Source: Gordius albopunctatus
Taxonomy: Eukaryota
NCBI GenBank assembly: GCA_964276515.1
Contig: OZ193909.1
Location: forward strand, 13,888,001 to 13,952,000
DNA: 64,000 bases
Reading direction: 5' to 3'
The notes beneath the pieces were generated by a model. The model was not told the origin of the DNA and did no database searches. It worked only from the letters and a program-made list of their open reading frames with translations. The translations under genes were made by a program, and so were the position numbers. Positions within the stretch are counted from its first letter, which is position 1. Each line of letters opens with the position of its first letter. Shown here piece by piece: positions 1,114 through 52,849 of the stretch.

Positions 1114-1776
1114 TTTGAAGTCACATAGATTGACTTGTGTGAATTGGCTTCATTACTTTCTTTTAATTTGGCTGTTTTTTAATTATATTTAATACATTTA
1201 CTCTGCTTTGAACTATTATAATATTTTTTTCTTACATATTGGTATTTTTGGTAATCAAAATACAAATAATTGTATAATTCATCTTTACTATACATATCAA
1301 TTAATTATTTATCAAATTTTTATAAGATTGGTGAGTGAATATTAGTCAGTTATAAGCAATATATTTCTAAAAGCGTACAGAGATAGAACAGTTTTAATCC
1401 ACATGAGTAAATCCTAAGTTTAATTCATACTCACATATAATAGATTGGTTCAAAAATAACTTTTTCAATTTTTTATAAAGGACATATTCATTAAGCCTCA
1501 CACCAATATTGGCAAACATTGTTAATGGTCTTATTGTTTTTGCTACTATGGTAATGTATTTTCTAATTTACTTAAAAAGAATAAAAAATCTCATAGAAAA
1601 AAAATTTTAATCATTTTTTAGTAAATTAAATTACATGATTTGGCAAAAGCTTAATAAAATTCAGATGCCTTAGTTCCTCAAGTAGTTCCAAATTTTTTAT
1701 TAATGCTTTTAGTTAACAAAATTCACATAAATGGAGAGAGGGAGAGAGATATGTGTTATTCATAGACTAATAAAAA

Positions 1777-1812
1777 GGTGCCCTATCAACTCGCCGAAAA
1801 CTATCTTGCCCA
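1777..1812. repeat. DNA-transposon-like terminal repeat; perfect inverted partner at 5377-5399
   Basis: aggtgccctatcaactcgccgaa (1777-1799) is the reverse complement of ttcggcgagttgatagggcacct (5377-5399); related sequence at ~4750-4800 and ~8210-8230. Confidence 0.6.
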
Positions 1813-1833
1813 ATTCACCCTGAGACATTAAGT

Positions 1834-4720
1834 GTGAAAAGTATACAAGGGTCACCGCCTCACTCACAACGAAGGCGGTTAAGGAACCTAGTTGTCGAAC
1901 GGACAAGAGTGGCTAGCTGGAATGTGGGCACGCTGACGGGGAAGAGCATCGAGGTTGCGCAGATGCTAAAAAGGCGAAGGATACACATAGCGTGTCTACA
2001 AGAAACGCGGTGGCATGGAACAAAAGCCAGGGAGCTAGGAGATGGTTACAAGCTATACTACTCGGGTTCCCCATCACGGAAGAACGGGGTCGGTATAGTG
2101 CTTAGCGATTCCTTTAAGGACAAGGTAGTCGAAGTCAAACGATGCTCGGATAGATTGATGTGCATAAAGCTGGCGGATCAAGGCGGCCTTGTCAATGTTA
2201 TTTGTGCGTATTCGCCCCAGGTTGGATGTTCCGAAAACGAGAAGGACGAATTCTATGAGAAGCTCGAAGAAGAAATACGCTACGTGAAGCCTGACGAGAA
2301 TCTCATCATCGGAGCAGACTTTAATGGGCACGTTGGGAAAGAAAGGGGCGTGTACGAACGAAATCACGGCGGGCATGGCTATGGAGTGTAAAATAAAGAG
2401 GGAGAGAAGTTACTACAGATGGCGCAAGCTTACGATATGGCCATTGTGAATACCTTCTTTCAGAAGCGTACCGAACATTTAGCGACGTACAGTAGTGGAA
2501 ATCACCTTACACAGGTCGACTACATATTAGTGAAGCGCATAAATTTGTGGCAAGTTAAAGATTGCAAGGTTATACCGGGGGAAGAAATCGCCAAACAACA
2601 TCGGCCAGTTGTCCTCGATATAGCAAGAAAGATTTTTCCCGTAAGGAGAAAAGTCTACACACCAAGGACAAAGTACGAAAAGCTTAAGGATGATCATGCA
2701 AATGAAATGTTTCACACTCGAGCAACTCCGCTCTTGAAGGTTGCAGGCTTGGAGGGCGACATTAACAAAAGGTGGGGCACCGTTGCAAATGTTCTAAAGG
2801 AAACGGCCTTACAAATATTGGGACGAACTATGGTGGTGGAATGACTCGGTCAAGGAGGTTATAGAAGAAAAGAAGGCGTTGTACCTACGATGGTACAAAA
2901 CGAAGAAAGGAGAAGACTACGAGGCATATCGTGAAGCGAAACGCAAAGCTAAGATAGCGGTCGCGATAGCGAAGAACAACGCTTACACCGAGATGGCAAA
3001 CAAGTTGGATACCAAGGGCGGCGACATAGTCATGTATAAACTCGCAAAGATCAGGGAGAAAAAAAGTCGAGATGTCGGGACACTTAAAGTCATTAAAAGC
3101 GAAGAGGGACGAACGTTGTGCAAACCGAAGGAAGTCATCAAAAGATGGAAAGATTATTTACAAAATATGATGAACAAAAAAATGATAGAAGACCGCTAGA
3201 GAGGGTGGAACCGAACTCGAACTTGGTTTTACCATTTCAGGCTTATGAAATAGGAGCACAACTAACGAAGATGCGGAAAGGGAAAGCGCTAGGTCCCGAT
3301 GATCTACCGATCGAAGCATGGCTTGGGTGCAAAGGAGAAGGAATCGACATAATGACAGGCCTATTTAACGCTATGCTGTATGAGAGTCGTATCCCTGACC
3401 AATGGAGGGAAAGTACGATCATACCCATATACAAAGGTAAAGGAGACGCGCAGGAATGTGGCAACTTTAGAGGTATCAAGTTGACCTGCCACTCACTAAA
3501 ACTACTAGAAAGGGTGCTAGTGAAAAGGCTCAATGACGAAGTTTGTCTCTCGCCCAATCAGTTTGGATTTGTGGCCGGTAAATCAACGATGGACCCAATC
3601 TTTGCGTTGAAGCAGACGATGGAAAAATATGGCGACATAAGAAAGAAATTACACATGGTCTTCATCGATTTAGAAAAGGCCTACGATACGGTTCCGAGAG
3701 ACTTAATATTGTGGTCCCTTAGAGCCAGAAATATACCCGAAGGATATGTTCGACTTATCAAGGAAATGTATAATGGCGCGGTTGCATCTGTTAGGACTAC
3801 CGTAGGAGTAACGAAACCCTTCCGAATAATGATCGGACTACATCAAGGATCAGCGTTAAGCCCATTCTTGTTTAATCTAATTATGGATACAATAACAAAG
3901 GACTTGCACAAGCCAGCCCCTTGGACTATGCTATATGCCGACGATATTGTCCTATGCGATGAAACAAGAGAAGGGGTTTTTCATCAGGCGAAAAAATGGT
4001 CAGAACGTTTCTCGGAATTCGGGTTAAAGGTCAGCGAGAAGAAAACGGTTTACATGCAAACGATGGTCGGTAGTCCGCAAATGCACAAAATTGACGGTCC
4101 AAGGTACACGGAGGTTGATAAGTTCACATATCTTGGCTCGCTATTACATCAAGAGGGAGGATGTACCGCCGAAGTCCATTCTCGGATCAAGAAAGCATGG
4201 CTCAAGTGGCGCAGCATCTCCGGTGTCATGTGTGACAAAAAGATACCAATTTGGTTGAAAAGCAAGGCGTACAAAACCATCGTGCGACCGGTCTTGCTTT
4301 ACGGGAGCGAAACATGGGCTGTAACCAGCGCGGAGGAGAAACTCTTGCAAGTCACGGAAATTAGAATGGTGCGATGGAGCTTAGGCTACACCAAGCTGGA
4401 TCGCATGAAGAACGAATCCTTGATGACAAAGATGGGTATACAAGCGACGAAGGACTTCTTAAGAGAAAATCGACTGCGGTGGTACGGCCATGTATTACGA
4501 AGAGACGAAGACGATGTCACACGCCGAACGCTGGAGATGGACGTGCCTGGAAGAAGAGGAAGGGGCAGACCACGTGCCACCTGTAAACGACTGGTCGAAA
4601 AGGATATGGACGTCAAACAGATGGAAATTGGCATGGCATTCACACGACTCAGATGGAAGAGGCTGCTGAAAACGTACCCCACGTCTGTGGGATTTTCAAC
4701 ACGATAAAGAAGGAGATTTG
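1834..4720 (+). mobile_element. RTE-clade LINE copy 1 (APE endonuclease + reverse transcriptase), disrupted by a stop and frameshifts
   Basis: ORF pieces 1834-2391, 2419-2844, 2879-3199, 3118-4707: SWNVGTL, CLQETRW, GADFNGHVG, QVDYIL (APE); FIDLEKAYD, GLHQGSALSP, YADD (RT); LRWYGHV and RGRGRP (RTE C-terminus); short GAA-like tail. Confidence 0.95.
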
Positions 4721-5251
4721 TTGGGGGGGGGGGAGCATTTTTTAACATTGGGACATTCAATTCGGCAAGATGATAGACTGCCGAACAGCTGATAATTTTT
4801 CAGCAAGTATGGAAACCGTTATTATGTGGGAATTATACCCTGACAATAGAAGTCAACATAATTTATTGTTTTATATTACTTATTTTTTTAAATTAAGCAA
4901 ATAGTCTTACTTATTTTCTTAAACATTATATAAAGGAGAAGTATAAATATACCAGTGGTGGAGTTTTTCCCAGTAGCGTAGCTAGCCTTTTTGCCTTGGG
5001 GGTGGGGGGGCTGAGCTGGTCAAACCATGGGCGTAGGTAGGGGGATTTTCCCTACGAAAACACTTAAAAATTAAAAATATTTATGTTTTGCCCCCCCCCC
5101 CCCAATCCAAAACTTGAATACGACCATGGGTCAAATTCAATTTAAAAAATTTTCCATCATAAACGTTGGACAAACTTAAAATTCCGCTACTACTTTGTGT
5201 ATTTTATCTAATAACATCACACTGGTATGTCTCCTCGTGTTTATAGGGCAT

Positions 5252-8254: not shown

Positions 8255-8520
8255 AGGAAAACGACTCAAACCCCTGTGATCTGGGGTCAGAATAGGATCT
8301 CCTCTCCTCGCGAGTCGTACAAACCGACGAAGAGGTTGGCGCCAGGAAGGGCATCCGGCTGTAAAAACTGCTCCAACCCCTTATGAATACAAAGGCAAAT
8401 TAAAGGGCCTGACAAAACACGATTCTCATGTTCGGATAAAATGGAGGAAATGGATTAGGGGAAAACAGGCCAACCCAGGAGATCCTGGAAAACGGCCTTA
8501 AAACGACGAAGAAGAAGAAG
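8255..8520 (+). mobile_element. Bipartite RTE-derived SINE-like element (RTE 5'UTR motif + RTE-like 3' end + GAA tail)
   Basis: ggttggcgccagg...ccggctgtaaaaactgctccaa matches the 5'UTR of RTE copy 3 (from 35708); the 3' part translates RIKWRKWI, like an RTE C-terminus; ends in (GAA)4. No clear TSD. Confidence 0.7.
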
Positions 8521-13520: not shown

Positions 13521-16500
13521 ATGTATTTAAATAATGTAATATTTCAGATATTGTTGTGTCAAACATTGTTTATTACAGGTGAGTATAAAAATTTTCTATT
13601 TACAATATATAATTTTATAATTTTATAATCTTAAACGCTTTATTCGGGTAGAAACCGAATTAACAAGGTCACCTAATTATATTTATCATATTTACTTTTT
13701 TATATTTTATTCAAGTTTCATATTCTTACATTTAAAATTAATTAATAAATGCTGTTTAAATAATGTTTTTAAGAAGATAATAATAACCCATTTTAGGAGT
13801 GCCGCAATTAAATTAAAAAGTTCACTCTAATTGGCGATTTTAATTAGAGACTAATTTGACTATATATATCCCTATCTTTTTTTTATCGTGTGACTCGAAT
13901 ATGATAATAGTAGGGAAACAAATTTCTTTACTATCCCATGACGAACACAAATCTTTTTTTATAGGACAGGAAGTCGGTATATCCAAAAAATTATTATAGA
14001 TTTAATAAAAATATGGCTAAAATATATAACAATTATTTGGGCCCTCCCTAAACCATTATTGCCCCCCTCTAATTTTAATGCTGGCTACGCTCATACACTT
14101 CAGCCTAAATTTTTTAGAAAAATAACCTTGAACTTTTGTTTTGTGAATATTATTTCATCACCCCCAAAAAATATTTATTAAAACACCTTACACATTAGCT
14201 CTGATACGAGTCTATAGACTATATCTAATAAATATTTTTTGGGCTCTGAGGGCGGTTCGTTGTTTTTTAACATTTTGTTCCTATCTAACGTTTATATATA
14301 GCTCGCCCTTAAATTTTTAACTACGCAAATACGAACACCATATAAATTTATTTGCTTAAATAACACACGTTACCTGTAAACTTTGAGAGTTGCTTTAAAC
14401 AAATTCACTTCTTTCCAAATTTGAAAATTCATGCATTGTAATCAAGCATATTTATTCCTATATTTTTCACACGTGTCTGTGCTGCTTTAACACTACCTAA
14501 GACGGTTCCAAATCCGTGTAAAAAAAGCTCCAAAACTATGATAGTTTCAAACAAGATTTTACAAGAAAAGTCTAGGGCGTCCTCCACAAACGACGCGCAC
14601 TGCATACCCCGCCCGTGCAATGTAAAAAATACACTAGAGTTACTGCCCAACTCACAACGAAGGCGGTCAAGGAAACTAGTTGTGGAAAGAATGCGAATTA
14701 CGTGCTGGAATGTGGGAACGTTGACGGGGAAGAGCATCGAGGTCGCACAGATGCTAAAAAGAAGAAAGGTACACATCGCCTGCCTACAAGAGACGAGGTG
14801 GAACGGAACGAAAGCTCGGGAATTAGGAGAAGGATACAAGCTTTTCTACAGTGGGTCATCAAATCGTAGAAACGGGGTCGGTATCGTTCTAAGTGAATTG
14901 TTCAAGGACAAGGTGATGGAAGTAAAGCGTTGTTCCGACAAGCTAATGTGGGTGAAGATTGCAGATCAAGGGGGGGGGAGAGCTCCTAACCGTTATGTGC
15001 ACGTATGCCCCCCAAATTGGATGTTTGGAATCAGAGAAAGACATATTCTTCGATTTATTGGAAAAGGAAATACAAGGAATCGGACAGGAAGAAAGGCTAA
15101 TTATTGGGGCAGATTTCAACGCTCACGTTGGGAAAGATTGCCTCGGGTATGAACGCAATCATGGAGGCTATGGGCATGGTCTGAAGAACAAAGAAGGGGA
15201 AAAACTTCTCCAAGTATCCCAAGCATATGACATGGCGATCGTTAACACCTATTTTCAAAAGCGCGAAGATCATATTGTGACCTATAGAAGTGGGAAGCAT
15301 TTTAGTCAAATCGACTATTTACTTATACGGCGAAAGGACTTATGGAGTATCAAGGATTGCAAAGTGATAACGGAGAAGAAATCGCCAGGCAACATCGTCC
15401 CCTTGTTATGGATCTTGATAGAAGAGTATTTCCCGAAAGAAGAAAGGTCTATGAACCTCGAATTCGATACGAAAGGCTAAAGGATACGTCGAGGAACAAA
15501 GAATACCATCAAAAAGCCTGCTCACTCTTGGGTGCAAGGAAGTTGCAAAGGGACGTAGACGACGATTGGGAGACGCTATCTAAGGACATTAAGGAAACAG
15601 CGATTCGTGTTCTAGGACAGACCAAAGGAGGCAAAGCTATGATAAGGGAACTATGGTGGTGGGATCAATCGGTTAAAGATTTCATCGAAAGAAAGAAAAA
15701 TCTATATAGACGGTGGCATAAATCAAAAAAGTCGGAGGATTATCAAGAGTACAGGTACGCAAAGAGGGCCGCAAAAAAGGCCGTTGCAAAAGCGAAGAAT
15801 GCCGCGTACACCGAGATGGCAAACAAACTGGATCATAAAGGTGGCGATAGGCTTATGTACAAATTGGCCAAGATAAGGGAGAAGAAAAGTCTCGATGTCG
15901 GAGTTCTTTAAATAGTCAAAAGCGAGTAGGGTCAAACCTTATTCAAGCCGAAAAAAGTGATGGAAAGGTGGAAAGGATATTTTAAGGAACTTATGAATAT
16001 TGCAAACGACAAGGATTCCCTTCCCGAAATTATGGTCGAACTCTTTCAGGAGGATGAAGTTAGGACACAAATGAACAAGATGCAAAAAAGAAAAGCAAAT
16101 GGTCCAGATGGAATACCTATGGAAGCATTGCTCGGATGTCGTGAAGAAGGAGTCACCACCATGACGAACCTCCTTAACAAGATATTGGTAGAAGAGCGAA
16201 TCCCTAATCAATGGAGAGCAAGCACGATTATACCCTTATTCAAAGGAAAAGGAGACCCTCAGGACTGCGGCAATTACAGAGGTATCAAGCTAACTTGTCA
16301 CTCCTTTAAGCTTTTGGAAAGGATCTTAGTAACAAGGCTCAAAAGCGAGGTGGAAATATCGGCTAATCAATTCGGATTTGTGGCCGGCAAATCCACAATC
16401 GACCCAATCTTCGCCCTGAGACAAATGATGGATAAGTATGGTGAAAAGAGGAAATACCTACATATGGTTTTTATCGACTTAGAGAAAGCTTATGACACGG

Positions 16501-18107
16501 TCCCCTGCGACTTAATATGGTGGTGCCTGAGGAGACAAAATATCCCTGACGCATATATACGGCCTATGAAAAATATTTATGAAGCTTCAAACTCTTGCGT
16601 TAGGACGACAGTTGGAGACTCTAAACCTTTTCGGGTTAATATTGGATTACGTCAAGGCTCTGCTTTAAGTCCCTTTTTATTTAATATAATTATAGACACG
16701 ATAACGAGAGACGTTCAAAAGCCTTCGCCATGGTGTATGCTATATGCCGATGATATAGTACTATGCGAGGAAACAAGGGAGAAAGTATTCGAAGAAGCCG
16801 AAAAATGGTCCAAGCGCTTAGCTGGATATGTTTTAAAGGTCAACGATAGAAAAACGGTATACATGGAAATGAACGGTACAGGCACCCCGTCGCTGGATGA
16901 CCACCTAAAGTACCCAAAAGTAGACAGGTTCACATACCTCGGCTCGATGTTACATCAAGAGGGAGGTTACACAACAGAAGTCAATGCTCGGATCCAAAAA
17001 GGATGGCCTAAATGGCGAAGTATATCCGGTGTAATGTGTGACAAGAAAATGCCAATATGGTTGAAGAGCAAAGCTTACAAATCCATCGTAAGACCGGTGT
17101 TACTCTATGGAAGTGAAACATGGGCATTAAACACCACGGAAGGAAAGCTATTACAAGCCACAGAGATGAGAATGATACGGTGGAGCTTGGGGTATACTAA
17201 GCTCGATCATATGACGAATGACTTTCTCATGACAAAAATGGGTATTCAATCTATGGCAGACATGATTAACGAAAATCGGCTAAGGTGGTATGGTCATATA
17301 CTAAGGAGGGATACAGATGACGTAAATCGAAAAGTACTGGACATGGAGGTACCGGGGAAGAGAGGAAGAGGAGTTATGGAAACTAAAGATATTAGTCAAG
17401 CCATAGCACTCACCCGGTCAAGATGGAAGAAACTTATCAAAACAAACCCCACCAATGTGGGACCAAATAACTGATAAAGAAGAAGTCTGTGCTGCTCTAA
17501 GGTTAGTTTTTCAAAGTCATTTTTCTAATGAAATAGGGCTGTAACTTTATATGGCTCAGATTTATTTGAAAAAATTTTTAACAAAAATTATCCCATAAAA
17601 TTCTAACAATTAACTTATCAAGAGCATATTGCTGCGCTGCGATTTAATTTTTGATAAGCTTGAGGAGTGCTTCTTTTAGATCATTTTTCTCTTTTTTATA
17701 TCCATTTTAACTCTTAAATTAATTTACTTATAATCGCATATCAAGCTTAAATTATCTCGATTTATAAGCAAATGTGTTCTGCTTCCACTATCCTTATTCG
17801 GACAACTGGAGATGGACACCCCCCTCCCAATTTTAAATAAACCCTAACATTAATGTTGATGTAAAATTTGATGTTTAACACATGAAGCAATTAAACTCTT
17901 TTCAATTGTTATTTAACTTATAAACGACATTTATTTTTTTTAAATATTTTTAATAAATTCGCTTGTACATATAATTTGATATTATATTTATGGACCATGT
18001 AGGCTCATCTCATGAAGTACCACCAATCTATTTTAACTTTACAGCTCAGTATGACGACCATTCGTTACATACAAAGGACGCTGGCAGCAAACAATTTGAA
18101 AATTTAA
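13521..18107 (+). CDS. Putative secreted protein, first two coding exons (13521-13578, 18003-18107); downstream exons not located
   Basis: Exon 1 MYLNNVIFQILLCQTLFITG (signal-peptide-like) ends at a strong GTGAGT donor in phase 1. Phase-compatible exon SSHEVPPIYFNFTAQYDDHSLHTKDAGSKQFENL is flanked by TAG/GTATG. RTE copy 2 would lie in the intron. Confidence 0.4.
14488..14527 (+). ncRNA. Twister ribozyme, 5' portion (mutated, 3' part deleted) at the 5' end of RTE copy 2
   Basis: T^AACACTACC-TAAG-ACGG-TTCCAAAT-CCGT follows the twister order UAA/P2(CACU)/T2/P4/L4. Confidence 0.7.
14489..17484 (+). mobile_element. RTE-clade LINE copy 2, essentially full length, frameshifted, with TSD
   Basis: APE and RT ORF pieces 14538-17474; (GAA)n tail; TSD gtctgtgctgct(t/c)taa at 14475-14490 and 17485-17500. 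Confidence 0.95.
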
Positions 18108-19708: not shown

Positions 19709-22700
19709 TGTGGTGAGCTGCGTAGTTTATATATGTATATTTGTGTTGTGTTGTATGTGTACTACCAACTGTTAACGAATTGCGTGTGATATACTACTAA
19801 TTTCCATTTCGCGATTATCAACAATCATTATCCTTCGGCTCGATGATTCTAAATATCTTCATTTAAATAAACTATGACTAAATCATATCAACGTACTAAC
19901 AGTGGTGACACCGACGTTAGTTTCAAGCTTCCCGAGTTCGATTCTGATAATTCCAGAGGATGGTTTGCAAGGATAGAAACACTATTTCGTCTACGCAAAG
20001 TAAGCAACCCTACAAATAAGTTGGCCTTGCTACTCGATGCATTACCTCAAAATGTTTGTACAGAGGTTAGAGGTGTGCACGGATCAAATTTTTTTGATCC
20101 GATCCGATCCGAGGGGTTTTTAAAAAAATTCGTATCCATCCGATCCGAGTTTTTTAAAATCTAAATCCCATCCGATCCGATCCGAAATTTTTTAATTAAA
20201 TCTTTACGAACAAAACTTTTTATTGATGATTAAATTCAAAATACATAAAAATAAGGTATAGCAATTTTAATATACTTGAAATATAAAATTTTATTTGACT
20301 AATTCCATGTTATCATATAAAAATAATAAAGAATCTAAATTTTCTGGTTTAATTCGCGTTCTTCTTTCTTCTAATGTTCTTCCAGCCACCGAGAAATTTC
20401 TTTCCGAAGTGGTAGAGGTAGCAGGTATAGCTAAAGATTTATTTGCCAGCTTATAAAGCCTTGGCAGGAAATTTGTCAAATGTATTTTTAGCTGAAGTTT
20501 TTGGAATACATTTATAATGCAAAAGATGGGAACTACCTCGAATGGAATTATATGTGTAGATATGATGGCATTTCTTGCATATAACATAACCGGTGTATGT
20601 ATCATTTTCATTTAGAAGGTCAAAGTAACTCCAAATTTGACTTTTTCCATCTTCTTTTTTAACTTGTTTGAGAAGATTTTTTTAAAATTTTTTTTTATTA
20701 TTTCTTCCATGACGGTTTTTAATCTGATAAACAATATTGGTGTATTTGCTAGCTGTTACGAATCCAAATGATTATTTCCAACACCCCCCCCCCCATTATT
20801 TTTTCCCCTTAAGTCAGCGTGACTCACACCAGACAATAGCCCTGCTGCAGCATGGAGATTGCTTCTAAGAAGGCAAGCTACATCATTCATGATTACCCGA
20901 AATCAAGAGGGAAAGGAGCTACGCGTGTGCTTTAAGGAAAGGGGAGAGTGATTGATGATTTTCGGAGTTGAGTTGAAATGAAATAGAAAGAGATGCGTGT
21001 CTACGTCTAGCTAGGGAAAAACGCTAGGGAAATTCCGATAAATATATTAGGGTAAGTAAGGGGTAAGGAGGTGATATTGGGCATCAAAATTGGTAAAGTA
21101 AAAAAAGAATGCAAAGATAATTACGAAAAGGTATACTAAAAATTATTAATTTAATTATTATTGTATCCGATCCGATCGGACTAAAATAAAATGTTGATTT
21201 GATCCGATCCGATCCGACTTCCAAAATTAAAATGTTAATCCGATCAATTGCCAGGTCACTTTACCAACATTCTCGCAGTTTTCGCTACTGAGCAATGTAC
21301 GTCAAAATTAGCCGAGATGGCCGATCAAATAGCTGAGGCAAATCAGAGCAACACCATACATAGCTTATCTACTAATAATGAAATTTCAAGCCTAAAAGAG
21401 ATGGTGAAGAAATTATCACTGGAAGTCCAGAAACTATCGGCAAATTCTGCCAGATCCCCTACTCGGCCGTTTCCCCCCCCCCCATAACTCACGTCGCTCT
21501 CTTTCCCCTGATTATAATAACGCCAGCGACGTGTGCTAGTACCATAAAAATTTTAAAAACAACGTCAAAAAATGTGCTCCTCCCTGCTCCTTCGCGTCCC
21601 GATTTTCGACAAACGCCTATACCAGCCGGGAAAGGCGACGCCCGAGCTCGGTCATATTCATCGTAGTCGCCTATTTTATATCATTGACAAACTTTCCGGA
21701 CACCGTTGGCTCGTCGATACCGGCACGGACATCAGCGTCCTGCCAGCTAAATCAAGTCAATGTTCCCTACCTGCCCCTTTTCAATTACAATCTGCTAACA
21801 ACAGCTGTATCAAAACCTACATTCAAATTCTTTTGTCGCTTGATCTCGGCTTACGAAAAACTTTAAGGTGGTTATTTACGATCCCAGACGTCAAAACACC
21901 CATTTTGGGGGCGGATTTCCTCGATTTCTTCAATCTCACAGTAGATTTAAGAAGGAAAAGATTGTTACACCCGCAGACAGCGACAATACCAAATGGTGTA
22001 CCCATCTCAACAACATCTTTAAGAATTCAGTCTTGCTCCCTACCGTTGGAGAATGAATTCGCAATTTTATTAAACGAATTCCCGGAAATAACCAAACCTC
22101 CGGACTACAGAAAGCAGGTGCATAGGCCGTACATCACATTCCCACTAAAGGACCGGCATCTTACGCCAAACACGGCGATTAAACCTGGAAAAGCTTACAA
22201 TTGCAAAGGAGGAGTTCACACATATGTTGGAGCTTGGAGTCATTCGACCATCACAAAGTAGCTGGGCTTCTCCTTTGCATATGGTTCCCAAAAAACTCAG
22301 GGTGATTGGCGACCCTGTGGAGATTATCGTCACCTAAACAATCAGACGATTCCTGATCATTATCCCCTACCCCACATCCATGATTTCTCAATAAACCTAG
22401 CTGGAACCACAATATTTAGCAAGCTTGATTTAATACGGGCGTATCATCAGAACCCCGTTGCTCCCCAGGATATTTACAAAACGGCGGTGATAACACCATT
22501 TGGAATCTATGATTTCTTGAGGATGCCATTTGGTTTGCGGAATGCGGCTCAAACGTTCCAGCGTTTCATAGATCAAGCTTTCCGAGGATTTCCTTTTACT
22601 TTTGCATACCTGGATGATGTTTTGGTCGGAAGCAAGTCTAAGGAAGAGCATATTCATCATCTCCGTCAGGTATTCACACGGCTAAAACAATATGACTTAA

Positions 22701-23595
22701 AAATCAACACTAGCAAATGTCAATGGGGGCTAAGTACGGTAGATATTTTGGGACATAAGGTTTCTCCGACGGGTTTAGCTCCACTACCAGAGAAAGTTAC
22801 AACGATAGAAAATTTTTCTATTCCTAGATCTATAACGCAACTTAGAAGGTTTATAGGCATGTTAAATTTTTATCCACGTTTAATTCCCCAGTGTCCTCAC
22901 CTCCTCAAGCCACTAACCGACTTGCTGGACGATAAAAAAAGGGCCAATCATCATGACGAAAGACTCTATAGACGCTTTTAAGAAGGCAAAAGGAGCTATT
23001 GCTGACGTCACACATTTGGCACACATTGAGGAGGGCGCAACTCTTTTGTTGACAACGGACGCTTCAAACGCAGCTGTAGGAGCCGTCCTCAATCAAATGA
23101 AAGGTGGTAAAACTAGCCCTATAGCCTTTTATTCGCAAAAACTTACGCCGGCACAAGGCCGTTACAGTACTTTTGGACGGGAGCTACTTGCCATTTGTTT
23201 GTCAATAAAACATTTTAGGCATGAACTTGAAGGTCGTGACTTTGCAGTTTATACTGACCCCTTTGACCCATGACTTGTTTTCCACACCTGACAGGTATTC
23301 CCCCCGAGAAACTAGACATCTAGATTACATATCGCAGTTTACGTCAGATATTAGGTTTATCCGTGGCCATACTAATATTGTAGCCGACACGTTGTCCCGC
23401 GTGGACATAGACAGCATTCACCTTAAAAGTTTATCTTTAGAGCAGATAGTTAGATCTCATGAATTAGAATTTTACAACCCCGACCAGCTTTCGTCGCTTA
23501 AAATTTCCGATTTCCCTATTCCAGGTTCAAATTTGACGGTTAAATGTGACACCTCTTGCGCCACACCACGCCCGGTTATACCTACTTCGATGACG
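19709..23595 (+). mobile_element. Gypsy/Ty3 LTR retrotransposon, internal region (PBS-like site, gag, protease, RT, RNase H), truncated before integrase
   Basis: TGGTGAGCTGCG PBS-like site at 19711; gag KLPEFDSDNSRGWFARIE; protease [22 protein letters not shown] and YLDD; RNase H LTTDASN...RYSTFGRELLA; many frameshifts. Confidence 0.9.
20068..21246 (-). mobile_element. One-ended non-autonomous hAT element in Gypsy gag, carrying a hATC dimerisation-domain remnant
   Basis: Terminus TAGAGGTGTGCAC, (ATCCG)n subterminal repeats; ORF 20291-20611 LAIPATSTTSERNFSVAG...RTRIKPENLDSLLFL. Confidence 0.85.
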
Positions 23596-26180
23596 AGTCT
23601 TTTTCGGAACAATATGCAAAGGAGAAGCCATATGTGCGAACTCCTCATTTGCAATTATAAGCTTTTCCATGTTTAATCGCCGAGGTTTGGCGTAAGATGC
23701 CGGTCCTTTAGTGGGAATGTAATGCACGGCCCATGCACCTGCTTTCTGTAGTCCGGAGGTTTGGTTATTTCCGGGAATTCGTTTAATAAACTTGCGAATT
23801 CATTCTCCAACGGTAGGGAGCAAGGCTGAATTCTTAAAGATGTTGTTGAGGTAGGTAAACCATTTGATATTGTCGCTGTCTGCGTGTGTATCAATCTTTT
23901 CCTTCTTAAATCTACTGTGAGATTGAAGAAATCAAGGAAATCCACCCCCAAAATGGGTGTTTTGACGTCTGGGATCGTAAATAACCACCTTAAAGTTTTT
24001 CGTAAACCGAGATCAAGCGACAAAAGAATTTGAATGTAGGTTTTGATACAGCTGTTGTTAGCAGATTGTAATTGAAAAGGGGCAGGTAGGGAACGTTGAC
24101 TTGATTTAGCTGGCAGGACGCTGATGTCCGCGCCGGTATCGACGAGCCAACGGTGTCCGGAAAGTTTGTCAATGATATAAAATAGGCGACTACGATGAAT
24201 ATGACCGAGCTCGGGCGTCGCCTTTCCCGGCTGGTATAGGCGTTTGTTGAAAATCGGGACGCGAAGGAGCAGGGAGGAGCACATTTTTTGACGTTGTTTT
24301 TAAAATTTTTATGGTACTAGCACACGTCGCTGGCGTTATTATAATTAGGGGAAAGAGAGCGACGTGAGTTATAGGGGGGGGGGGGGGAGAACGGCCGAGT
24401 AGGGGATCTGGCAGAATTTGCCGATAGTTTCTGGACTTCCAGTGATAATTTCTTCACCATCTCTTTTAGGCTTGAAATTTCATTATTAGTAGATAAGCTA
24501 TGTATGGTGTTGCTCTGATTTGCCTCAGCTATTTGATCGGCCATCTCGGCTAATTTTGACGTACATTGCTCAGTAGCGAAAACTGCGAGAATGTTGGTAA
24601 AGTGACCTGGCAATTGATCGGATTAACATTTTAATTTTGGAAGTCGGATCGGATCAAATCAACATTTTATTTTAGTCCGATCGGATCGGATACAATAATA
24701 ATTAAATTAATAATTTTTAGTATACCTTTTCGTAATTATCTTTGCATTCTTTTTTTACTTTACCATTTTTGATGCCCAATACCACCTCCTTACCCCTTAC
24801 TTACCCTAATATATTTATCGGAATTTCCCTAGCGTTTTTCCCTAGCTAGACGTAGACACGCATCTCTTTCTATTTCATTTCAACTCAACTCCGAAAATCA
24901 TCAATCACTCTCCCCTTTCCTTAAAGCACACGCGTAGCTCCTTTCCCTCTTGATTTCGGGTAATCATGAATGATGTAGCTTGCCTTCTTAGAAGCAATAT
25001 CCATGCTGCAGCAGGGCTATTGTCTGGTGTGAGTCACGCTGACTTAAGGGGAAAAAATAAGGGGGGGGGGGGGGGGGGGGGGGGGGGTTTGGAAATAATC
25101 ATTTGGATTCGTAACAGCTAGCAAATACACCAATATTGTTTATCAGATTAAAAACCGTCATGGAAGAAATAATAAAAAATTTTTAAAAAAATCTTCTCAA
25201 ACAAGTTAAAAAAGAAGATGGAAAAAGTCAAATTTGGAGTTACTTTGACCTTCTAAATGAAAATGATACATACACCGGTTATGTTATATGCAAGAAATGC
25301 CATCATATCTACACATATAATTCCATTCGAGGTAGTTCCCATCTTTTGCATCATAGATTTATTCCAAAAACTTCAGCTAAAAATACACTTGACAAATTTC
25401 CTGCCAAGGCTTTATAAGCTGGCAAATAAATTTTTAGCTATACCTGCTACCTCTACCACTTCGGAAAGAAATTTCTCGGTGGCTGGAAGAACATTAGAAG
25501 AAAGAAGAACGCGAATTAAACCAGAAAATTTAGATTCTTTATTATTTTTATATGATAACATGGAATTAGTCAAATAAAATTTTATATTTCAAGTATATTA
25601 AAATTGCTATACCTTATTTTTATGTATTTTGAATTTAATCATCAATAAAAAGTTCTGTTCGTAAAATTTTAATTAAAAAATTTCGGATCGGATCGGATTT
25701 AGATTTTAAAAAACTCGGATCGGATGGATACGAATTTTTTTAAAACCCCTCGGATCGGATCGGATCAAAAAAATTTGATCCGTGCACACCTCTAACCTCT
25801 GTACAAACATTTTAAGGTAATGCCTCGAGTAGCAAGGACAACTTATTTGTAGGGTTGCTTACTTTGCGTAGACGAAATAGTGTTTCTATCCTTGCAAACC
25901 ATCCTCTGGAATTATCAGAATCAAACTCGGGCAGCTTGAAACTAACTTCGGTGTCACCACTGTTAGTAAGTTGATTTGATTTAGTCATAGTTTATTTAAA
26001 TGAAGATATTTAGAATCATCGAGCCGAAGGATAATGATTGTTGATAATCGCGAAAATGAAATTAGTAGTATATCACGCGCAATTCGTTAACAGCTGGTAG
26101 TACACATAAAACACCAGGAATATCGAATTTACACAATAAATGACACAAATATACATATATAAACTACGCAGCTCACCAAA
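23596..26180 (-). mobile_element. Inverted duplicate of the Gypsy 5' region (PBS, gag, protease, RT start)
   Basis: Reverse complement of 19709-22299 with scattered substitutions and indels; ORFs 23673-24284 and 24317-24613 mirror 21572-22261 and 21248-21487. Confidence 0.9.
24614..25794 (+). mobile_element. Mirror copy of the hAT element at 20068-21246
   Basis: ORF 25257-25577 nearly identical to 20291-20611; terminus GTGCACACCTCTA at 25794, at the same gag position. Confidence 0.85.
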
Positions 26181-32779: not shown

Positions 32780-33100
32780 TGACCATATGACGAATGACTT
32801 TCTTATGACAAAAATGAATATTCAACCTATGGCGGACATGATTAACGAAAATCGATTAAGGTGGTATATGAAGATATACTAAGGGGTACACGAATGACCT
32901 AAATCGAAAAGTACTGGACATGGAGGTGCCGGAGAAGAGAGGAAGAGGACGACCCCGTGCCACATGGAACAGGCAAGGCGATAAAGTTATGAAAACTAAA
33001 GAGTAGTTAAGACATGGCACTCATCCGGTCAAGATGCAAGAAACTTATCAAAACAAACCCCAGGACCGTGGGACCAAATAACTGATAAAGAAGAAGAAGA
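32780..33100 (+). mobile_element. 5'-truncated RTE fragment (same family as copies 2 and 3)
   Basis: DHMTNDFLMTKM...ENRLRWY and 3' end gggaccaaataactgataaa(GAA)n match copy 2. Confidence 0.9.
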
Positions 33101-35680: not shown

Positions 35681-35714
35681 TCCCAAGTCCGTGTGCAAAA
35701 AGTGGAGGGTTGGC
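35681..35714 (+). ncRNA. Twister ribozyme, 3' portion at the 5' end of RTE copy 3
   Basis: TCCCAAGT-CCGT...AAAAGTG-GAGGG-TTGGC corresponds to twister L4/P4'/P2'/L1'. Confidence 0.75.
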
Positions 35715-38037
35715 GTCAGGTCGGAAACCGGCTATAAAAATCAACTCCAAAACTATGATAGTTTCAAACAGGATTTTACAAGAAAAGGCTAGGGCGTCCT
35801 CCACAAACAACGCGCACTGCATACCCCGCCCGTGCAATGTAAAAAATACACTAGGGTTACTGCCAAACTCAGAACGAAGGTGGTAAAGGAAACTAGTTGT
35901 GGAAAGAATGCGAATTACGTGCTGGAATGTGGAAACGTTGACAGGGAAGAGCATCGAGGTCGCACAGATGCTAAAAAAAAGAAAGGTACACATCGCCTGC
36001 CTACAAGAGATGAGGTGAAACGGAACGAAAGCTCGGGAATTAGGAGAAGGATACAAACTTTTCTACAGTGGGTCATCAAATCGTAGAAACGGGGTTGGTA
36101 TCGTTCTAAGTGAATCTTTCAAGGACAAGGTGGTGGAAGTAAAGCGTTGTTCCGACAGGCTAATGTGGGTGAAGATTGCAAATCAAGGGGGCCTCCTAAC
36201 CGTTATGTGCGCGTATGCCCCCCAAATTGGATGTTTAGAATCAGAGAAAGACATATTCTTCGATTCATTGGAAAAGGAAATAGAAGGAATAGGACAGGAA
36301 GAAAGGCTAATACGTTGGGAAAAATCGCCTCGGGTATGAACGCAATCATGGAGGCTATGGGCATGGTCTGAAGAACAAATAAGGGGAAAAACTTCTCTAA
36401 GTATCCCAAGCATATGACAAGGCGATCGTTAACACCTATTTTCAAAAGCGCGAAGATCATATTGTGACCTATAGAAGTGGGAAGCATTTTAGTCAAATCG
36501 ACTATTTGCTTATAAGGCAAAAGGACTTATGGAGTATCAAGGATTGCAAAGTGATACCGGGAGAAGAAATTGCCAGACAACATCGTCCCCTTGTTATGGA
36601 TCTTGACAGAAGAGTATTTCCCGAAAGAAGAAAGTTCTATGAACCTCGAATTCGATACGAGAGGCTAAAGGATACGTCGACGAACAAAGAATACCATCAA
36701 AAAGCCTGCTCACTCTTGGGTGCAAGGAAGTTGTAAAGGGACGTAGATGACGATTGGGAGACGCTATCTAAGGACATTAAGGAAACAGCGATTCGTGTTC
36801 TAGGACAGACCAAAGGAGGCAGAGCTATGAATAGGGAACTATGGTGGTGGGATCAATCGGTTAAAGATTTCATCGAAAGAAAGAAAAATCTATATAGACG
36901 GTGGCATAAATCAAAAATGTCGGAGGATTATCAAGAGTACAGGTACGCAAAGAGGGCCGCAAAAAAGGCCGTTGCAAAAGCGAAGAATGCCGCGTACACC
37001 GAGATGGCAAACAAACTGGATCATAAAGAGGGCGATAGGCTTATGTACAAATTGTCCAAGATAAGGGAGAAGAAAAGTCGCGATGTCGGAGTTTTTAAAA
37101 AAACTCTTGCGTTAGGACGACAGTTGGAGACTCTAACCCTTTTCGGGTTAATATTGGATTACATCAAGGCTCTGCTTTAAGTCCCTTTTTATTTAATATC
37201 ATTATAGACACGATAACGAGGGACGTTCAAAAGCCTTCGCCATGGTGTATGCTATATGCCGATGATATAGTACTATGCGAGGAAACAAGAGAGAAGGTAT
37301 TCGAAGAAGCCGAAAAATGGTCAAAGCGCTTAGCTGGATATGGTTTAAAGGTCAACGATAGAAAAACGGTATACATGGAAAAGAACGGTACAAGCACCCC
37401 ATCGCTGGATGACCATCTAAATTACCCAAAAGTAGACAGGTTCACATACCTCGGCTCGATGCTACATCAAGAGGGAGGTTGCACGACAGAAGTCAATGTC
37501 CGGATCCAAAAAGGATGGCCTAAATGGCGAAGTATATCCGGTGTTATGTGTGACAATAAAATGCCAATATGGTTGAAGAGCAAAGCTTACAAATCCATCG
37601 TATGACCGGTGTTACTCTATGGAAGTGAAACATGGGCATTAAACACCACGGAATTAAAGCTATTACAAGCCACAGAGATGAGAATGATACGGTGGAGCTT
37701 GGGGTATACTAAGCTCGACCATATGACGAATGACTTTTTCATGACAAAAATGGGTATTCAATCTATGGCAGACATGATTAACGAAAATCGGCTAAGGTGG
37801 TATGGTCATATCCTAAGGAGGGATACGGATGACGTAAATCAAAAAGTACTGGACATGGAGGTACCGGGGAAGAGAGGAAGAGGACGACCCCGTGTCACGT
37901 GGAAAGGGCAAGTCGATAATGTTATGGGAACTAAAGAGATTAGTCAAGACATGGCACTCAGCCGGTCAAGATGGAAGAAACTTATCAAAACAATCCCCAC
38001 CAATGTGGGACCAAATAACTGATAAAGAAGAAGAAGA
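35681..38037 (+). mobile_element. RTE-clade LINE copy 3 with an internal deletion of roughly 0.7 kb
   Basis: Highly similar to copy 2; the junction at ~37095 joins copy-2 position ~15905 to ~16589; (GAA)n tail. Confidence 0.95.
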
Positions 38038-40958: not shown

Positions 40959-42036
40959 ATTCCTACCGCCTAAATTCAATAATAGGGGAATGCTTAGTTT
41001 TGTTGTTGATACAGTAACTTAAGTAGGCTACATTTTAAATATAGACTAAACTTTTAAAGTAACTTGTGAGAGTAGGATATTAGAGGAGACAAAATAAATA
41101 ATAGTATCAAATAACTCTGGGTGAATGCAGTGTTTTACAGGAATAAGCCTGACATTTTAAGAAATGTTCTTCGTTGCGGTTATTTTATTTAGCAAATATA
41201 ATTTAAATCTTTTTTAATGAATATAATAGAGCATGTCCGTTAGATTAATCCTTATTTCTCCATAATCTCCTGCGCTGATAGTGATAAAATCTGCATATAA
41301 ATGTGTCATTTGGTTTGTGTGTTCTTAAATTTTTTTATTTCATTTAACTTTATTTATAAGTCATGTAATTAAAATATTTCAACATCAAGGAGCTTTATCA
41401 CGTGTACATTGCTGTTAAAGCCATTTATTTTAAAATTTTATAATCTACAACTGCGGGCATCAACAATGATAATTAACTCGTAATTTTTTCTAAATTGAAT
41501 ATAAGTATTTTTATAACATTCTCATTGTTTTCACCGATAGCATTTGGTAGTACAGAAGGCTTAAATAGATTTTAGTCGCTAAAATCATTATAGATTCTTA
41601 AAATCGTCAAATGATTCGTATAAATTAATTAAAATTTTTAGTTAATGATTGTATCTTCCATTTTGAATCAAAATAAAATCATAACAAATCATAACGCACA
41701 ACATTTTTAAAAGACATGTTGTATAATATTCGAGACATCAATTAATGTAAATATTAATAATTATATTCCATATTAGGCACAACTATTATTAAGAGCAAGA
41801 TGTTTAAGTGATACCTTTACCATGTCCTCCCCATTAATTTACTCATTGAAATATAAAAGGTGTCAGTAGCAAAGGAAGTAAGTGTGTCTCGTACAATTAC
41901 GCATACATTGATTGCCATGAAACTTATCCTTTATTCATATAATAGCAATAGTTCACGAATTGACTTATTTGATCCAAGAAATTAACACATTTTACGAGAA
42001 ATTTTACCATAATTTAGGGAGGAAAATTTCTTAAAA

Positions 42037-42831
42037 ATGAATAAATCACATAAAATTTCAAACATATCATCTATCAATATCCAATCATCTCTTTCAAATA
42101 TTGGCGTCAAACAAGTGAAAACTTCAAATTATTTGCAAATATCAGGTAAAAATGACAATCCGAAATTAGATGTAGCATATTCATCCTCTAAGACATGTTC
42201 TAAAGAAGAGTACTCATCCGATGATGAAATTTGCCAAGAAAACTGTTGTGTTCCAGATGAGAAATTGAAGTATTTTCCATACAATTTCAATAATTATCCA
42301 CCAACTTTGAAAGAATCCCTAGAATTTCGTAAAAATACGAAAAATAGATTTTCAAATTGTTTTTCAGCCCCACGTCAAATTTATTCGTCAGAAAATCATT
42401 TCATGCCATCACCTTTATTAATGTCCAGCTCTATGCACGAACAATACGCCTTCTTGCAAACTTATTTTAAAGCCCAACATGCTTTAGCCGATTCCTATCG
42501 TAGCTATAACCAATCAAACACAACCAATCATAATAGTAATACATTGTTGAGAGAACATACTAAATCACAGTCTAAGCTTCACTGCGAGACGATAAAATCT
42601 CCAGAATCGAGTTCCCAAAGAAATACCAGGTTTTTCAGAGCCCCTAAATGTGCCCGTTGCAGGAATCATGGTTTAATTTCGGCCTTGAAGGGTCATAAAC
42701 GGTTTTGTGGTTGGAAGGATTGCGAATGTGCTAAATGTTGTTTAATTACTGAAAGGCAAAGAGTTATGGCAGCCCAGGTTGCTTTAAGACGTCAACAAGC
42801 TCAAGAAGATTTAGTCGCTGCAGATGTTTAA
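42037..42831 (+). CDS. DM-domain (doublesex/mab-3 related) transcription factor, closest to the DMRT4/5 (Dmrt99B) type; DM domain at the C-terminus
   Basis: [65 protein letters not shown] at 41852; AATAAA at ~42947. Confidence 0.93.
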
Positions 42832-50550: not shown

Positions 50551-52849
50551 TAGTGATGGGAAAACGCTTAGCAGTAGCGCGCTTAGCACCTCCCCGCTGA
50601 TGGGAATAGCCTATTAAATACGCTATGTCTACTAGCACATAGTCACTTTAAGTGCTATAAGCTATAGGAGATGGGAGGTTTGAGGTGCTAGAGCTATAGG
50701 AGATGGGAGGTTTGAGGTGCTATGAGCTATAGGAGATGGGAGGTATGAGGTGCTATGTGCTATAGGAGATGGGAGTTTGAGGTGCTATGTGCTATAGGAG
50801 ATGGGAGGTTTGAGGTGCTATGTGCTATAGGAGATGGGAGTTTGAGGTGCTATGTGCTATAGGAGATGGAAGTTTGAGGGGCTATGTGCTATAGGAGATG
50901 GAAGTTTGAGGTGCTATGTGCTATAGGAGATGGGAGTTTGAGGTGCTATGTGCTATAGGAGATGGGAGTTTGAGGTGCTATGTGCTATAGCCGATTGCAC
51001 TTAAATGCGCTACTCCTATAGCACCGGCGCTAACACTGGGAATAATTTTTTTAATTGTTTATTTTGTTTTTATTAAATATTAAAATACATCTGAATATAA
51101 TTTTTTTGCCCTATCTTACCATCTAACTACGACTTATTTTAATATAAATATTTAATTAAATGTATGACTTTAATTTTATTTTGCATTGCTTCTACATTTA
51201 TTTTATCAATAAGTCGCCCCGCCCCCCTCTGAATGACGGAAAAAAATTTTTTCCAATGTACCTTACATATTAATAATTTTTTTTTATTTAGCCCCTCCCT
51301 AATTCAACTTTTATTTTAACCGTTTGGCCCCCCCCCCTTAATTCAAAACCTAGTTATGCCCTACGCCCATGTTTTTGAGAATAAAAAAATTAAACTCCCC
51401 CTTTCCTTAAGTTAATATGTTTCAATTAAAAGGAAAACAATACTATTGAGTGAACTTTTATGCGTTTGCGTACTCAGACTCAGACAGTCTTAGTCTGAGC
51501 TGAGTCATAATTACCAAGAAAAGGTTACGGTTATCTCCAACTTCCTTAAACCAAATGCTATGCATGAATAGCTGGAAAGTCAATAATTAACAAAATATTT
51601 GCCTGTTTTATTATATTTATCAATATAACTAATATATATATAATGCGAAATGGTCGAAAATAAAGTTATCGTAGTTTGTGATTTTTAACGAGTGTGTTTT
51701 CATATAGACGTTGATAAAGATATCTCACTTGGGAAATCTTTTATTATATTTCCCAAATGTAACATAAAATAAGTACTTTAACCGGCTGATATAAAACACA
51801 TTGGAAATATTACACTTAAAGATTAAATTTGTTATTTAAGTCGGATTTATATTGGTTATTAATTAGTGACCAACCATTACCTTTTTTAAATATTCTTAAC
51901 ATAAGTTTTATGTTGAGGTGACCGGGGCTAGTCGTAGCCAGGTAAATAATTATTTTTCATAAAATTAATATTTTTATGTTGAGTTGAAGAAAAGGATAAA
52001 GATATTAAAGATGAGAGCGAAAAATTAATTTTCTTTTTATCACTGACTGAATAAAAATAACATGGCATGAGTGAGTATGCGTACTCAGACTCTGAGATCT
52101 GAGTACGCATTAAAGTTCACTCTTCTTACTCTTAGGTTTTCCTTTTGATTGAAACATAATCGCCCTGATGGGATATGGATTAACTTAAGGGAAGGGGGAG
52201 TTTAATTTTTTTATTCTCAAAAACATGGGGTAGGGTAGGGCATAACTAGGTTTTGAATTAACCCCCCCCCCTCCCCGATTGAAAAAAAGTATTTTTTTAA
52301 ATATTAAACATTTTGTTTAAAATTTATAATTTAAAATACTTAGCATAAATTACTTAGCAATTTGTAATTATTTACTTAGCAGTTAAATAACACCCTTTTT
52401 TAATTTTGTTTTTTCGAACAATATATTTTTAATGGAAAATTGTTTATTAGATTACACACAAGTTCATATTAACTCTATTGTTTTCATTGAAATTATTCCC
52501 AGTGTTAGCGCCGGTGCTATAGGAGTAACGCATTTAAGTGCAATCGGCTATAGCACATAGCACCTCAAACTCCCATCTCCTATAGCACATAGCACCTCAA
52601 ACTCCCATCTCCTATAGCACATAGCACCTCAAACCTCCCATCTCCTATAGCACATAGCACCTCATACCTCCCATCTCCTATAGCACATAGCACCTCAAAC
52701 TCCCATCTCCTATAGCTTATAGCACCTCAAACCTCCCATCTCCTATAGCTTATAGCACCTCAAACCTCCCATCTCCTATAGCTTATAGCACTTAAAGTGA
52801 CTATGTGCTATAGCTTTAGCTCCTTAAAAACGCTATTTCCCCATCACTA
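50551..52849. mobile_element. Foldback composite hAT insertion: two inverted MITE copies (50551-51038, 52500-52849) plus a captured, partly palindromic middle; 8-bp TSD
   Basis: Both outer ends are TAGTGATGGG in inverted orientation; aataaaag at 50543-50550 and 52850-52857; inner inverted repeat ~51338-51480 / 52098-52261. Confidence 0.85.
50655..50990 (+). repeat. 32-33 bp minisatellite, ~10 units (mirror array of ~7 units at ~52548-52790)
   Basis: Unit gctataggagatgggag(g)tttgaggtgctatgt, no spacers. Confidence 0.95.

Follow-up and report, generated by a model that had tools for sequence, protein, structure and literature searches.

A decayed RTE-type LINE that begins with a probable 5' remnant of a type-P1 twister ribozyme

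Introduction

Why does a decayed retrotransposon copy begin at exactly the letters at which it does? The question is raised by an RTE-type LINE (hereafter copy 2) in the window, by which we mean the whole 64,000-nt stretch of Gordius albopunctatus DNA that was analysed. An earlier note on this DNA had placed the start of copy 2 at the cleavage site of a predicted twister. An HDV-like ribozyme lies wholly 3' of its own cut, whereas a twister depends on the host flank for one strand of P1. RTE, Baggins and R2 elements carry HDV-like ribozymes at their 5' ends, and these have been proposed to free a promoter-less retroelement from a co-transcript that is often intronic (accessible text of PMC6765202). 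Twister “T-variant” ribozymes are described at the 5' end of Perere-3, an RTE-clade element from Schistosoma mansoni, and in the accessible text of that report they cleave in vitro and in reporters, leaving a 5'-AA product (Liu et al. 2021, PMC8501958).

Our main reading, to which we give a probability of roughly 85%, is that the head of copy 2 is the 5' remnant of a type-P1 twister which heads an abundant family of RTE-type LINEs; this twister likely cuts the element RNA from a read-through transcript just before AA, with new copies starting AACACT, and copy 2 itself, its catalytic half gone, is predicted to be dead.

Results

Copy 2 spans 14489-17484 (2996 nt) and is a decayed RTE-type LINE between target-site duplications (TSDs). 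The 29 nt that the earlier note had quoted as its start are found as written at 14489-14517/14519. Its features are as follows.

14475..14490 (+), 5' TSD, of host origin, from which the 5' strand of P1 would also come; 12 nt exact, or 16 nt with one mismatch
14488..14490 (+), UAA (loop L1), three letters common to the TSD; predicted cut between 14488 and 14489, position according to the accessible text of PMC8501958
14491..14527 (+), retained twister parts: P2 5' strand (14491-94), T2 5' strand (14495-96), P4 (14502-05/14514-17, 4/4 pairs), then the linker and the first two letters of P2'
14506-13 (+), loop L4, with two changes relative to copy 3, one of which breaks a T2 pair
14527..14528 (+), junction left by the loss of 42 nt, comprising the remainder of P2' together with L1' (GAGGG) and P1' (UUGG)
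14538..17474 (+), single frame for AP endonuclease and reverse transcriptase, broken by two stops and divided into three frame segments; its first in-frame ATG is at 14538
17475..17484 (+), 3' end, very short, with GAA repeats
17485..17500 (+), 3' TSD

The exact 12-nt duplication (14475-14486 / 17485-17496) occurs nowhere else in the window, and a duplication of at least 12 nt arose by chance in 4 of 4980 random pairs of 40x40-nt flanks. It is followed by a T/C mismatch at 14487/17497, after which identity resumes through TAA (14488-14490 / 17498-17500). On a rough estimate, the TSD is more likely to be of 16 nt, with one subsequent change, than of 12 nt, since three extra matches would be expected by chance in about 4% of cases in this base composition and the copies diverge by 6-7%. 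Two T's stand between the exact 12-mer and the AA of copy 2; the 12-nt reading would place them inside the element as extra letters, which would count against our main explanation.

The UAA of the proposed ribozyme belongs to the target as well, which leaves the boundary ambiguous by the three letters TAA, and not by the two (AA) that had been claimed; from copy 2 alone, cleavage and microhomology-guided joining are therefore inseparable. On a reading that we consider less likely than not, the family twister is real and the end of copy 2 was set by microhomology: reverse transcription would have run to the end of the RNA, or halted at most 2 nt before it, with joining at the target's TAA, so that this copy would say nothing on the exact cut. 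The TAA present in both copies of the TSD speaks for such joining, as does a sister copy of the same family that is truncated inside the ribozyme (copy 3, below); against it stands the coincidence of the end of copy 2 with the majority start of the family in four sequencing runs. At the level of the family this alternative is compatible with our main reading.

The locus, including its deletion, is represented by one contig each in runs X1 and X2, which are possibly the source of the window itself, with 0 differences over 14400-14557; no contig of the empty site was found among the matches listed for public contigs aligned to copy 2. The depth of the contig over 14400-14557 is below that of most other single-copy contigs (274.5 against 326-653 for long records in X1; 77 against 79-205 in X2), perhaps reflecting a haplotype-specific or hemizygous region, contig depth being a poor measure.

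The identification of copy 2 as an RTE element, made earlier from the sequence, holds on the evidence of its frame, its Pfam domains and its homologs. RTE elements carry a single ORF, with an AP endonuclease followed by a reverse transcriptase (RT) and no ORF1 (accessible texts of PMC8501958 and PMC13295347), and this is the arrangement of copy 2. Its frame, which opens 49 nt from the 5' end, is colinear with homologs of 992-994 aa (the breaks were counted against those of 992 and 994 aa) and contains Exo_endo_phos, below cut-off, and RVT_1. The length of 2996 nt, the GAA tail and the TSD agree with the ~3-3.5 kb, the short 3' end with a tandem microsatellite and the variable TSDs of RTE elements. 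To our knowledge the clade lacks a C-terminal CCHC motif, and the CCHC pattern matches none of 108 full-length homologs. With the RT piece as query, 498 long proteins among 3614 candidates were recovered at E<=1e-50; the best 120 of the 498 are 40-46% identical, mostly ~1000 aa long with endonuclease and RT, and come from plants, insects, fish and contigs, and no named RTE reference was among the matches listed.

The first 39 nt of copy 2 correspond to the 5' part of a type-P1 twister. In an Rfam scan of 201 nt, twister-P1 (RF03160) at 14484-14528 was the best of seven rows, at 17.4 bits and E 0.27; the gathering cut-off is 67.2 bits, and the head thus falls below the score for membership. The same scan of the whole window returned nothing at gathering level and, at E<=10, nine unrelated weak rows with no twister among them. 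The Rfam comparison that the earlier note had recommended therefore bears out its proposal locally, in the identity of the best row, and fails to do so in score and across the window. A custom model built on two related natural twisters ranked the flagged site first of 14 rows in the window (E 0.49), and the half carried by copy 3 was absent from its results. Taken alone, the 40-nt stretch lacks significance as a twister; the reality of the ribozyme in copy 2 rests on the evidence of the family.

That evidence begins within the window, which holds the following relatives of copy 2.

35681..35713 (+), sister copy 3, ~93-94% identical to copy 2; 5'-truncated at loop L4, with L4, P4', P2', L1' and P1' present
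35703..35744 (+), the 42 nt of copy 3 that are absent from copy 2
32781-33096, 3' fragment of the family of copy 2
1774-4735, copy 1, of a second RTE family (~70% DNA identity) for which the window shows no twister head

Copy 3 supplies the twister half that copy 2 lacks, although Rfam gave no twister match on its head. The two halves are also contiguous outside the window: public contigs with a 5' half like that of copy 2 stop matching it at 14527 and continue into the L1'/P1' strand. When the strands of copies 2 and 3 are combined, 13/13 pairs of P2, P4, T1 and T2 can form, the assignment of the T1/T2 pseudoknot being our own assumption as Rfam prints none. The family twister has (N)AA in L1 directly before P2, and in comparison with the twister at the head of a distant RTE element (L002, below) four of its pairs are compensated by double changes and none is broken. 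Its L1' and P1' letters are identical to those of S. mansoni twisters in Table 1 of PMC8501958. Chance likeness in a 40-nt stretch would agree with the window-wide scans, which returned no significant score; the presence of the missing half in the sister copy and in public contigs, the complete set of pairs with their double changes and the letters shared with S. mansoni largely refute it, and we consider it very improbable. The start of copy 2 is thus read as a fragment of twister-P1, in agreement with the twister of the earlier note, on the strength of the best local Rfam row together with the family fold. Pattern scans for intact twister heads gave no hits in metagenome contigs and none in viral contigs.

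In copy 2 one of four P2 pairs is left, and no GAGGG (L1') occurs within 60 nt of the head. The host flank offers one of four P1 pairs in the standard register and five of six, three of them G-U, with a shift of 2 nt; for comparison, the P1' of the family (UUGG) finds three or four partners in ~31% of random flanks from the window. The 42-nt deletion has taken the strand with the catalytic G (L1'). With the L1' strand and half of P2' gone, one T2 pair broken, a flank that forms one of four P1 pairs and a broken ORF, copy 2 is predicted to be an inert relic; both the loss of P2'/L1' and the probable inactivity had been noted before, and the deletion and the broken frame uphold them. No other contig bridging the deletion was among the matches listed, though a bridging contig would rank among the longest. 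The 42 nt may have been lost after insertion, as the earlier note supposed, or already during reverse transcription; if cleavage made the end of copy 2, the donor ribozyme was intact and the loss occurred no earlier than reverse transcription.

Both family copies in the window (2/2) are damaged inside the 55-nt ribozyme, copy 3 stopping at L4 and copy 2 skipping 42 nt from within P2'. A speculative reading, which we think unlikely, is that the folded twister obstructs the element's own reverse transcriptase and leaves a share of the daughters dead on arrival. Were this true, the host flank would decide which intact copies can cut again; and, with the plant-like heads of two related loci described below, twister processing would characterise a single RTE lineage found in both animals and plants.

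The 5' ends of the family were investigated by aligning public contigs to the head of copy 3 in four runs from two studies with two organism labels, X1 and X2 again being possibly the source of the window. Loose ends before 35681 formed the top row in each of the four runs (130/5263 contigs in X1, 103/1705 in X2, 108/2488 in X5 and 137/4712 in X3). In all four the majority sequence had the identical 17 element letters from AACACT; the 13 letters before them were exclusively A or T and differed between the runs. The agreement of these loose ends was 0.56-0.64; simulations with 17 shared and 13 unrelated flank letters gave 0.59-0.65 at 75-85% conservation and 0.70 at 95%, and unrelated flanks likewise gave majority letters that were all A or T, with an agreement of 0.56-0.64. 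The anticipated pile-up of 5' ends at AACACT, the cut site, beside unrelated flanks is thus borne out in 4/4 runs and both studies at the level of majority letters, which describe assembled contigs and not single copies, and derive from the best 24 of 932 loose-end rows for copy 3.

Copy 2 itself was matched by 125, 67, 121 and 1 contigs in the four runs. Among the matches listed, other copies match it from 14485-14489 onward only, and the upstream loose ends, with 2-4 contigs a row, have an agreement of 0.56-0.68, no better than unrelated flanks. Sequence common to the copies 5' of the UAA, which would speak against the proposal of the earlier note, was not seen among the matches listed for contigs on copies 2 and 3.

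Related elements were sought by a profile search of metagenome contigs, which yielded 78 loci, five of which hold the start of the endonuclease. Two of these five have a twister-P1 at the start of the element.

L002:21-85, twister-P1 at 59.4 bits, E 2.5e-11; GTT tail; AA at or next to the element start
L016:117-178, twister-P1 at 55.1 bits, E 4.3e-10; GTT tail; AA at or next to the element start

Both are distant RTEs (41-42% protein identity) that begin at the same ribozyme position as the family of copy 2, and their GTT tails we take to be plant-like. In L002 a 7-nt match adjoins the AA, as judged by eye; also by eye, the remaining three of the five loci seem 5'-truncated, with AT-rich flank right before or inside the ORF. 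Rfam at gathering score returned nothing on 20 of the 78 loci, since both heads lie under the cut-off, and the custom two-sequence model, applied to all 78, added no more than two loci to its two training sequences, L077 at 16.3 bits (E 0.055) and L064 at E 0.25. No clear TSD emerged from a search at copies 1 and 3 or at the five loci with the endonuclease start.

These starts bear on a further explanation, in which transcription starts at AACACT from a promoter inside the element, as is the case for L1 or R2-unrelated LINEs, and the twister fold is vestigial or serves translation, with no part in 5' processing. A fixed start site would also predict a fixed 5' end, and a cleaved ribozyme does affect translation according to the accessible text of PMC8501958. 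The end nevertheless falls on the known twister cut, so that precisely the 5' strand of P1 lies outside; compensatory changes preserve the pairs; and the distant RTEs start at the same ribozyme position. We therefore regard an internal promoter as improbable, if less so than a chance likeness.

A short element of ~255 nt without an ORF, at 8260-8520 (+), shares a block of the RTE 5'-UTR with copy 3 and has a GAA tail. Its head is not a twister; it looks HDV-like to us, an assumption, and Rfam gave no ribozyme match in it.

Discussion

Under our main reading, a twister that cuts the element out of a longer RNA, the element would be transcribed from an upstream promoter, and its RNA would fold with the P1 5' strand borrowed from the host flank. 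The predicted twister would then cut 5' of AA, whatever letter precedes. By analogy with the accessible text of PMC8501958, the cut RNA would be translated and copied by target-primed reverse transcription, as a result of which the new TSD would abut AA; at copy 2, the 5' AA may have been joined to the matching TAA in the target. The earlier note had suggested that the read-through transcript was possibly host intronic; a crude splice scan and the list of ORFs gave no clear host exon beside copy 2. The only clear piece of a host gene found in the window is a coding exon with a DM domain (doublesex/mab-3 type; Pfam DM, 77.7 bits) at 42013-42831 (+), located on the strand of copy 2 and 27 kb downstream of it.

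The likeness to Perere-3, as described in the accessible text of PMC8501958, is extensive: a twister core heads a single-ORF APE and RT element, the TSD adjoins AA, the host flank gives the P1 5' strand, L1' GAGGG is followed by UUGG, targets are non-specific and the 3' end is a short tandem repeat. The differences, on the same source, are in the host, here another, AT-rich animal genome in which the activity of the family is predicted from sequence, and in details of the element. P2 is CACU/AGUG in the family and CUCC/GGAG in Perere-3, and T2 is AC/GU as against GC/GC; P4 closes with A-U and P3 is reduced to ~4-5 unpaired letters, unlike in Perere-3; the linker between P4 and P2' has 8 nt instead of 5; the distance from AA to AUG is ~91 nt instead of ~147 or 112; and the 3' tail is GAA instead of GTAA. 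With RF03160 the copy 2 fragment and the heads of L002 and L016 share the order and letters of L1, P2, P4, L4 and L1', but copy 2 is without P2'/L1'/P1'; within the family, the comparison covered the fragments in copies 2 and 3.

Because the arrangement is published for Schistosoma Perere-3 (PMC8501958), the family of copy 2 is a further example of it and not a new principle. RTEs freed by ribozymes with HDV-like folds were known earlier still than the Perere-3 twisters (accessible text of PMC6765202); the job proposed for them is the same, and the fold is unrelated. What differs here is a matter of detail, read from the letters: those of P2, T2 and P4, a near-absent P3, a longer linker and another host. 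Our search of the literature found no report of twisters in non-LTR elements besides PMC8501958; most subscription journals lay outside it, and wider reports may exist. With the family, twister-guided processing of RTE 5' ends would be known from an animal besides Schistosoma, in a variant fold that is compact and compensated; each sequencing run offers more than 100 distinct 5' junctions, on which the influence of the host flank (P1) on the continued mobility of copies could be tested.

Two further features of the window concern other repeats. A large inverted duplication at 19748-26114, 92-99% identical, holds gypsy-like and hAT-like pieces, and at 50609-52814 a minisatellite of 32-33 nt forms two arrays in inverted orientation, with ~1.5 kb between them, an arrangement that resembles the ends of a fold-back element.
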